A DNA stretch of 64,000 nucleotides, taken from sequence record PV654397.1; one strand, given 5' to 3'. This DNA comes from Escherichia phage WPEC5. Under the pieces are notes generated by a model, which saw only the letters and a program-made list of their open reading frames with translations, had not been told where the DNA came from and searched no databases. The position numbers and the translations under genes are program-made. How positions within the stretch are numbered: the first letter of the stretch is position 1; each line of letters opens with the position of its first letter. Below, piece by piece: positions 46,093 through 46,677 of the stretch.

Positions 46093-46677
46093 TTATCGTG
46101 TTACCTTACTTGCTGCCACATCACGCTTTTTATAGTACTGATTCCAGATATTGCTGGTTAAACCGTAATCAAGTACTTTAATAAGTCCATTACGATCCTG
46201 GCCGATATTCTGTTTTCTGATATCTCTTATCGTTAGTGTTGATAATGTATCATCAACGTGTTGTAGTGCATCAGCAAAGCGGTGCTGGCGTTCGATTGCA
46301 TTACGTTTAATATTGTACTTTAATTCATTGCACGCGTTTACGTGCTTCACACTGCCTTTGCTTGCAGTACTCAACCGATCCATAACGATAAACATATTAT
46401 CAGGATCGCATAAATGCATATGCACCTTTGCAAAGTACTGTTTCAACTGAGGGCGGTCATAGTCTAAAAAATTCCATACCTTACATTCAGTTTCATTTTG
46501 TTCTACACCCGCATCACAATTCGCGACCTTAATCACTAACCGATCATTTAAAGCGAATACTATACGGGAAGAACCAGCACCGATGATCTCCAGGCCAGCT
46601 AACCGACAAGCTGAAAGGATCTCTTTGTTGGTTTCCATTTCTGACAGTGTACGGATGAATTTAGTATAATTACGCAT
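46093..46677 (-). CDS. Protein kinase-like protein
   Basis: IGAGSSRIVF (Gly loop), VIKVA (Lys), IRDIRKQNIG (catalytic-loop-like), VLDYG (DFG-like) in kinase order; start moved to internal Met. Confidence 0.5.
   Translation of the reverse strand: MRNYTKFIRTLSEMETNKEILSACRLAGLEIIGAGSSRIVFALNDRLVIKVANCDAGVEQNETECKVWNFLDYDRPQLKQYFAKVHMHLCDPDNMFIVMDRLSTASKGSVKHVNACNELKYNIKRNAIERQHRFADALQHVDDTLSTLTIRDIRKQNIGQDRNGLIKVLDYGLTSNIWNQYYKKRDVAASKVTR

Follow-up and report, generated by a model that had tools for sequence, protein, structure and literature searches.

The kinase of phage T7 (T7K, the product of gene 0.7) acts early and disarms many bacterial defense systems via mass phosphorylation, and the study describing this also reports jumbo-phage homologues of the enzyme in G17 and Munch (PMC13645617). 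Members of the T7K family carry DPV or DP in place of DFG, and depletion of Ser, Thr and Tyr accompanies the hyper-promiscuous homologues (PMC13645617). The genome paper of the related phage Sharanji points to a further gene, calling its product WNN14351.1 ‘another protein kinase, which function is unknown’ (PMC11895373). We analyzed the orthologue of this gene in Escherichia phage WPEC5, located at positions 46093–46677 on the minus strand of a 64-kb stretch of sequence record PV654397.1 (64,000 nucleotides in full length, ‘the window’ below). The original prediction, made from the sequence alone, had described a protein-kinase-like gene with the motif order of a eukaryotic-like Ser/Thr kinase core and had likened it to T7 0.7 as part of a host-takeover module. 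The reading that we favor, with a probability of about 0.6, is an active ATP- and Mg-dependent minimal phosphotransferase, expressed early and most likely phosphorylating host or phage proteins in takeover or counter-defense, whose activity we infer from its conserved active site and predicted fold.

Gene, family and predicted fold

The open reading frame (ORF) encodes 194 amino acids, with the start ATG at 46677 and the stop codon (46093–46095) included in the coordinates; all features of the gene and its promoters given below lie on the minus strand. We consider this reading to be right because an AGGAG Shine-Dalgarno sequence, read from the sequence at 46686–46690, lies 8 nt upstream of the ATG and all homologues begin with MRNY or MRxx at the equivalent methionine. 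The longest ORF, 213 amino acids from a TTG at 46734, was dropped on the same two grounds. The window is 92–98% identical to Asteriusvirus jumbo coliphages (the 121Q/PBECO4/G17 group) such as Ecwhy_1, WPEC3, fEgEco12, G17, Sharanji, PBECO4 and 121Q. The protein matches 53 phage records in total, with 90–100% identity in 34 Asteriusvirus records and 36–42% identity to orthologues in RaK2-like Klebsiella, Salmonella (Munch), Erwinia and Xanthomonas jumbo phages. Most of the records are labeled hypothetical, and a few read ‘protein kinase domain-containing protein’, ‘serine/threonine-protein kinase PRP4’, ‘PknA’ or ‘putative protein kinase’; a PBECO4 fragment is labeled putative protein kinase in UniProt and BFVD. 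A kinase-like label for this gene is already known, as a loose annotation, and a comparative review of jumbo phages leaves protein kinases unmentioned (PMC7824862). A related-locus search from a 13-sequence alignment returned only phage 121Q from IMG/VR and none of the GTDB representative genomes.

The protein belongs to PHROG 4301 (E 1.8e-41; residues 3–188 on profile positions 13–185 of 225), a family absent from the Pfam and NCBIfam copies that were searched. Searching 1.8 billion representative proteins exhaustively with a profile yielded 2,072 relatives (E ≤ 1e-3), each representing a cluster at 50% identity; 248 of them reach E ≤ 1e-10. The family is large, uncharacterized and distinct from the T7K family. 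With the single sequence, Pfam Pkinase (PF00069) is the top match (E 0.004, 17.0 bits), and all 19 phmmer matches in the PDB at E ≤ 10 are protein kinases. Against the PDB, a first family profile (252 sequences at E < 1) and a second one (593 sequences) matched almost exclusively kinases, and the best match, MKK4, improved from E 1.5e-4 to 1.5e-5. Pkinase is matched by 5 of 49 family members (best E 5.7e-6).

AlphaFold2 produced a confident model from a 49-sequence alignment (pLDDT 95.8, pTM 0.90). It starts with two N-terminal helices, followed by beta1–beta2 with the Gly-rich loop, beta3 with K50, alpha-C (residues 55–73, with E64), beta5 and a hinge; alpha-D, alpha-E, the catalytic loop, beta7–beta8, the DYG motif and a final helix (residues 175–193) make up the remainder. 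The predicted structure has the bilobal protein-kinase-like (PKL) fold, with a five-stranded N-lobe plus alpha-C, a hinge and a C-lobe core. Foldseek matches in the PDB include APH(2''), Legionella Lpg2603, OSR1, PknB, MEK1 and PRPK (E 3e-5 to 1e-3). Among the predicted viral structures of BFVD, members of the same family (RaK2, CBB, Lacusarx) rank highest, ahead of phage ‘protein kinases’, some of which are T7-like kinases of Autographiviridae (E 5e-7 to 8e-6, TMq 0.51–0.59). The kinase reading of the original prediction is thus supported: profile searches and the predicted structure both yield kinase-fold matches, and the Lys and Asp expected for catalysis line up with those of PKC-beta II.

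That an ORF without a kinase fold should resemble these motifs by chance has next to no probability. The single-sequence scores are sub-threshold and the model that AlphaFold2 built from a shallow 13-sequence alignment is poor (pLDDT 49), as such an ORF would give, but the deep-alignment model is confident and kinase-like, the motif residues are near-invariant across the family with its more than 2,000 clusters, and the alignment to PKC is co-linear. We also considered a defense-system kinase and dropped this identity, since PADLOC defense-kinase models show weak generic similarity only (PD-T4-6, E 7e-4, 17 bits, limited to the C-lobe).

The C-terminus lies 22 residues past DYG; many family members stop after 12–16, several of them after 12–14, e.g. 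...DYGLTDEVFENFYK. In both sequence and model there is no activation segment with its APE motif (subdomain VIII) and no alpha-F to alpha-I, the elements through which protein kinases hold peptide substrates and are regulated. Because the chain stops so soon after DYG and these parts are missing, the protein is not a canonical eukaryotic-type kinase. All four motifs quoted in the original prediction occur in the translation of the 194-residue ORF in the quoted order, so the described succession of Gly-rich loop, lysine, catalytic loop and DYG stands; a full eukaryotic-type Ser/Thr kinase does not, given the truncated chain and the sub-threshold Pkinase match.

Active-site conservation and the proposed substrate

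The Gly-rich ATP-binding loop IGAGSSRIVF (residues 32–41; 46555–46584) forms the beta1–beta2 hairpin of the model and corresponds to the family signature GxGSSRxVF, with G33, G35, S36, R38 and V40 conserved. K50 (46528–46530), within VIKV at residues 48–51, is the beta3 lysine of the VAIK type, which binds ATP, as placed by the family and PKC alignments; it aligns with the catalytic Lys of PKC-beta II and with the invariant K93 of T7K. E64 (46486–46488), in the model helix 55–73, is the alpha-C glutamate and sits inside the family motif G-x2-QN-x2-E. The catalytic loop RDIRKQN (residues 151–157; 46207–46227) contains the putative base D152 and the putative metal ligand N157 and aligns with RDIKPSN, RDIKPQN and RDLKLDN of solved kinases. 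DYG (residues 170–172; 46162–46170) is the predicted Mg-binding equivalent of DFG and aligns with the DFG of MKK4 and PKC, and beyond it the secondary structure of the model has a single closing helix at about residues 175–193 (46096–46155). The phmmer alignment to PKC-beta II is co-linear across residues 44–180 and pairs K50 with the VAIK Lys, E64 with the alpha-C Glu, FIVMDRL with the hinge, RDIRKQN with RDLKLDN (D152 and N157) and LDYG with ADFG (D170). Compared with the HRD-x-K-x2-N consensus, the loop IRDIRKQN keeps R, D and N, lacks the His and has R instead of K at D+2; across the family the residue before the Asp is mostly Gly and D+2 is variable.

Conservation was counted in 205 domain copies from 161 family proteins aligned to the family HMM, using ungapped copies only. 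K50 is retained in 199 of 199 copies, E64 in 197 of 199, D170 in 194 of 194, G172 in 192 of 192 and G35 in 191 of 198. The position of D152 holds Asp in 189 of 194 copies and Glu in the remaining five, and the middle residue of the DYG equivalent is Tyr or Phe in 170 of 194. The whole set of PKL residues for ATP and Mg binding (G33/G35, K50, E64, D152 and D170) is present and 97–100% conserved in family domains. Other near-invariant residues are specific to the family and have no counterpart in eukaryotic-type kinases: R38 (of GxGSSR), G57, Q60 and N61 (of G-x2-QN-x2-E; each found in 193 of 199 domains) and G159. Judged by these sequence counts the active site is under purifying selection, and its near-invariance therefore favors an active enzyme over a decayed pseudokinase.

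Some relatives carry the mini-kinase as 2–4 tandem copies in polypeptides of 450–970 amino acids, with the catalytic residues kept in each copy; these are the metagenomic proteins P0021, P0023, P0027, P0030, P0032 and P0037 (loci L009 and L014). At least two matched domain segments are present in 33 of the 161 proteins, a few of which are probably one split domain (P0108, 145 amino acids; P0120, 160 amino acids). Two sit inside giant proteins of 2,130 and 3,248 amino acids. The gene of P0021, on a phage-like contig of 149 kb, faces a gene for a Metallophos (calcineurin-like) phosphoesterase in convergent orientation.

A kinase fold need not imply phosphotransfer to a substrate. Bud32/PRPK, RIO and COQ8 work mainly as ATPases within complexes, the first two in KEOPS or on pre-40S ribosomes, and a protein of this manner, regulatory or pseudokinase-like, could remodel a partner via ATP; the absence of a substrate-binding lobe agrees with such a role. 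We nevertheless regard it as improbable, as the protein retains the D152 base and both metal ligands (the one at D+5 varies across the family), no conserved, tightly linked partner gene is found, the neighbors differing apart from a loose synteny with a ParE-like ORF, and the tandem copies of the relatives are unlike KEOPS- or ribosome-bound ATPases.

According to the favored reading, the gene would be transcribed by host RNA polymerase from a promoter of the sigma-70 type within the early region of the terminal repeat, and the protein would be at work during the opening minutes of infection. It would have an N-terminal extension of two helices, a complete N-lobe (Gly-rich loop, K50 and alpha-C E64) and a reduced C-lobe, in which alpha-D/alpha-E, the catalytic loop with D152 and N157, and DYG with D170 are followed by one closing helix. 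Phosphotransfer would depend on ATP and Mg, and constitutive activity with an open catalytic cleft is expected because the activation segment and the substrate-docking lobe are both missing. The molecules phosphorylated in takeover or counter-defense would be host or phage macromolecules, most probably proteins, which we favor because the kinase domain of T7K, with the same truncated layout, phosphorylates a wide range of proteins. We hold it very probable that the protein is an active kinase-fold enzyme, with catalysis predicted from fold and residues; for protein substrates in takeover or anti-defense, the chances appear about even.

Several observations pull against the favored reading. The Pkinase match stays below the gathering threshold (17.0 versus 31.7 bits), and aminoglycoside kinases and SAICAR synthetase are among the top structural matches. 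The D+5 ligand, Asn in this protein, is variable across the family (N in 65, H in 64, S in 36 and Q in 20 copies at position 157). The parts with which protein kinases bind peptides (subdomain VIII with APE, alpha-F and alpha-G) are absent from the model, so that the structure gives no indication of protein specificity. With a median pI of 9.2, and values above 8 in 34 of 49 members, the family is basic, in contrast to the acidic kinase domain of T7K (4.6). The archaeal ArkI (PDB 8yv5), a similarly minimal kinase, phosphorylates tRNA, at U47 (PMC9095486). Depletion of Ser, Thr and Tyr is not seen in the early ORFs of the window, where these residues make up 16.8–19.5%, a weak comparison with no late-gene control, and the promoter calls described below are consensus scans, not transcript data.

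An active PKL kinase could also act on something other than protein, such as RNA or tRNA, a nucleotide, a sugar, lipopolysaccharide or an antibiotic-like small molecule. The basic character of the family compared with the T7K kinase domain speaks for this, as do a basic C-terminal Y-K/R tail that is common among family members and the residues R38, Q60 and N61 that eukaryotic-type kinases do not share. We consider such a substrate unlikely, if well worth keeping in view: the C-terminal helical subdomain with which aminoglycoside phosphotransferases (APHs) bind their substrates is absent, ArkI has HGQ for HRD and DFE for DFG where this protein retains the catalytic Asp and D-Y-G, the sequence matches almost only protein kinases, and T7-type protein kinases are the nearest characterized viral structural matches.

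A broader proposal, which we put forward tentatively and think rather doubtful, is that PHROG 4301 represents a distinct class of phage kinases, widespread and ultra-minimal at about 165–195 amino acids, with a non-canonical target, giving jumbo phages a second takeover or anti-defense system. The signature of such a class could be GxGSSR, G-x2-QN-x2-E, D-x4-[NHS]-[WY]-G and LDYG with a single helix after it, in a unit that could be concatenated into 2–4 active copies. Candidate targets are RNA or tRNA of the host, proteins bound to DNA, and nucleotides of immune signaling; a non-canonical target is conceivable because the surface is basic and the peptide-docking lobe is absent. The system could differ in mechanism from the T7K-type kinase and work alongside it.

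Probable early-region setting of the gene

The gene had been placed in a small-ORF cassette region, an accurate description: its neighbors, which encode 60–134 amino acids, all share its strand, and many come with a promoter-like site of their own. Orthologues invariably sit within runs of small ORFs on one strand (Hallingskeid, XbC2, Munch and Muenster), and a metagenomic relative with 52% identity has the same context. In phage vB_Ec-M-J the orthologue EcMJ_042 lies inside an annotated direct terminal repeat of 21.5 kb, and the Muenster orthologue is within a terminal repeat predicted by PhageTerm; those of Hallingskeid, XbC2 and Munch are found at a distance of 3–18 kb from the end of the deposited genome.

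Upstream of the kinase gene, an ORF of 80 amino acids (46709–46951) is separated from it by a 31-nt gap with no terminator between, and the two are probably co-transcribed; Pfam and PHROG gave no match for this ORF. The nearest promoter upstream of the two-gene unit is a sigma-70-like site, TTGACA-17-TACTAT, at 46980–47008 (10 of 12 consensus matches). Fourteen perfect TTGACA-N16-18-TATAAT sites occur in the window, all on the minus (coding) strand, compared with 0.16 expected by chance. Twelve of them fall within 44.0–60.6 kb (44094–60597), with the others at 1568 and 18358, and this pattern of perfect consensus sites suggests a dense early-promoter region. Early transcription by host RNA polymerase is known in phages with long terminal repeats, as in the pre-early region of T5 and the host-takeover module of SPO1. 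By analogy, the motifs and position of the kinase gene fit early expression by the host enzyme. The host-takeover module of the original prediction fits this context, through the terminal-repeat orthologue and the sigma-70 consensus promoters; the takeover role itself and the Ser/Thr specificity are what we infer.

Many of the perfect promoters share AGTACTGTATAAT, which provides the TG of an extended -10 element. About 60 nt of promoter and 5' leader are duplicated in near-identical form at 47225–47284 and 46949–47008, with the second promoter copy at 47256–47284; the shared sequence reads TTGACAGTACTCAA(A/T)TGTTTTAGTACTAT...GG(A/G)GAAACAAAATG. The two leaders precede consecutive ORFs of 72 and 80 amino acids that have no database match, both located between a ParE-like ORF and the kinase gene. 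Directly 3' of the kinase stop codon is a terminator-like hairpin with a 12-bp stem (46054–46081), which embeds a -35-like TTGACT for the next unit. This 28-nt hairpin, AAAGGGATTGACTCCGGTCAGTCCCTTT, is present in three exact copies on the minus strand (43794–43821, 46054–46081 and 49332–49359), each followed by GCTATTATAT; it has no T-run, and a -10-like TATTAT follows 17 nt downstream of the embedded TTGACT. The repeat may be a combined transcription stop and restart element between early units.

The ParE-like ORF (84 amino acids, 47284–47535, minus strand) matches the Pfam ParE-like toxin domain PF24732 above threshold (E 6.4e-11) and also PHROG 1525. Its homologue is directly upstream of the kinase gene in the metagenomic phage with the 52%-identical protein (L007), and 0.7–2 kb upstream with other genes between in RaK2 and Hallingskeid; in the window it is two ORFs away. 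We dropped a functional coupling of the two genes, as we take this varying spacing among relatives for synteny and not for an operon partner. Elsewhere in the window, BLASTP clustering (E ≤ 1e-5) revealed a 23-member paralogous family of head-to-tail ORFs of 63–89 amino acids at about 20.7–42.2 kb on the minus strand, densest at 36–42 kb, and several smaller paralogue families of 100–190-amino-acid ORFs are found at 11–36 kb.

Comparison with T7K and other minimal kinases

A phage-encoded minimal kinase in the early region is a known kind of gene, with PHROG 4301 itself being uncharacterized. Aligned with hhalign, the PHROG 4301 family and T7K share 135 columns (E 5.8e-5, probability 66%) that are in register at the Gly-rich loop, VIKV, D-x4-N and the metal-binding Asp, and a distant relationship between the two proteins is likely at the level of sequence profiles. 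On the other hand, PHROG 2828, to which the T7K family (PF27024 in Pfam) corresponds, gave no match for this protein at E ≤ 1, and tblastn of T7K against the window found nothing. A true T7K-type homologue exists in the same phages: Sharanji gp144, a protein of 224 amino acids with DIHSSN...ITDP and a BLASTP match to T7K at 4e-8. It is encoded outside the window at OR545507.1 66182–66856 (L005:4183–4857, minus strand) and has no shut-off domain, and in Munch the T7K-type gene likewise occupies a separate locus (MK268344.1 326288–326929).

It follows that the gene studied here is most improbably the jumbo-phage orthologue of T7 gp0.7, the hyper-promiscuous anti-defense kinase. The truncated architecture and early position are the same, the distant profile–profile match and the T7-like kinases among the BFVD matches agree with orthology, and jumbo-phage homologues in G17 and Munch have been reported (PMC13645617). 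However, the T7K-type gene matches 703 phage records, including Autographiviridae (T3- and T7-like phages), while none of the 53 records of our protein belongs to that family; the PHROG assignment, DYG in place of DPV, the QNxxE motif and the modest hhalign probability also separate the two. We rejected orthology given the lack of a tblastn match in the window and the identification of Sharanji gp144 as the real homologue. The T7 0.7 analogy of the original prediction holds for the truncated architecture only, the true homologue being a separate gene.

Jumbo coliphages of the 121Q/G17 group hence carry two unrelated-looking minimal kinases, one of the T7K type and one of the DYG type in the terminal-repeat early region. 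If active, the DYG-type family would be a candidate for a second phosphorylation-based mechanism of phage takeover or anti-defense. The protein ranks among the smallest natural kinase folds and is useful for understanding the minimal catalytic core. Following the T7K work, a second jumbo-phage kinase with tandem-copy relatives is timely, if not startling.

With T7K, the protein has in common that it is phage-encoded and early by position, with a helical N-terminal extension before the Gly-rich loop, the beta3 Lys in V-I-K-V, a catalytic D-x4-N with the metal-binding Asp 13 residues on, and a domain that ends about 25 residues past that Asp with no activation segment. Unlike T7K, it has DYG and not DPV, an alpha-C Glu in QNxxE that T7K lacks and a GxGSSR Gly-rich loop; it has no C-terminal shut-off or DNA-binding domain, and it falls into PHROG 4301 instead of 2828. 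Relative to eukaryotic-type Ser/Thr kinases (PF00069; MKK4/7, PKC and PknB), subdomains VIII–XI are missing, including the alpha-F Asp and the Arg of subdomain XI, the His of HRD is absent and the catalytic-loop Lys is not conserved in the family. APH(2'') is larger, at about 300 amino acids, and builds its antibiotic pocket from a C-terminal helical subdomain, which the WPEC5 protein lacks; TM-scores are only about 0.4, no APH family of Pfam matches the protein, and nothing follows its closing helix. Bud32/PRPK and RIO are universal cellular proteins of 230–270 amino acids that retain the alpha-F region, and no match to them was seen at the sequence level. ArkI is a cellular 2'-kinase of archaea and thermophiles that keeps subdomains IX and XI and has the motifs HGQ and DFE, with no family relationship detectable from sequence. 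In its truncated layout, the WPEC5 protein resembles the T7 kinase domain, ArkI and Bud32.
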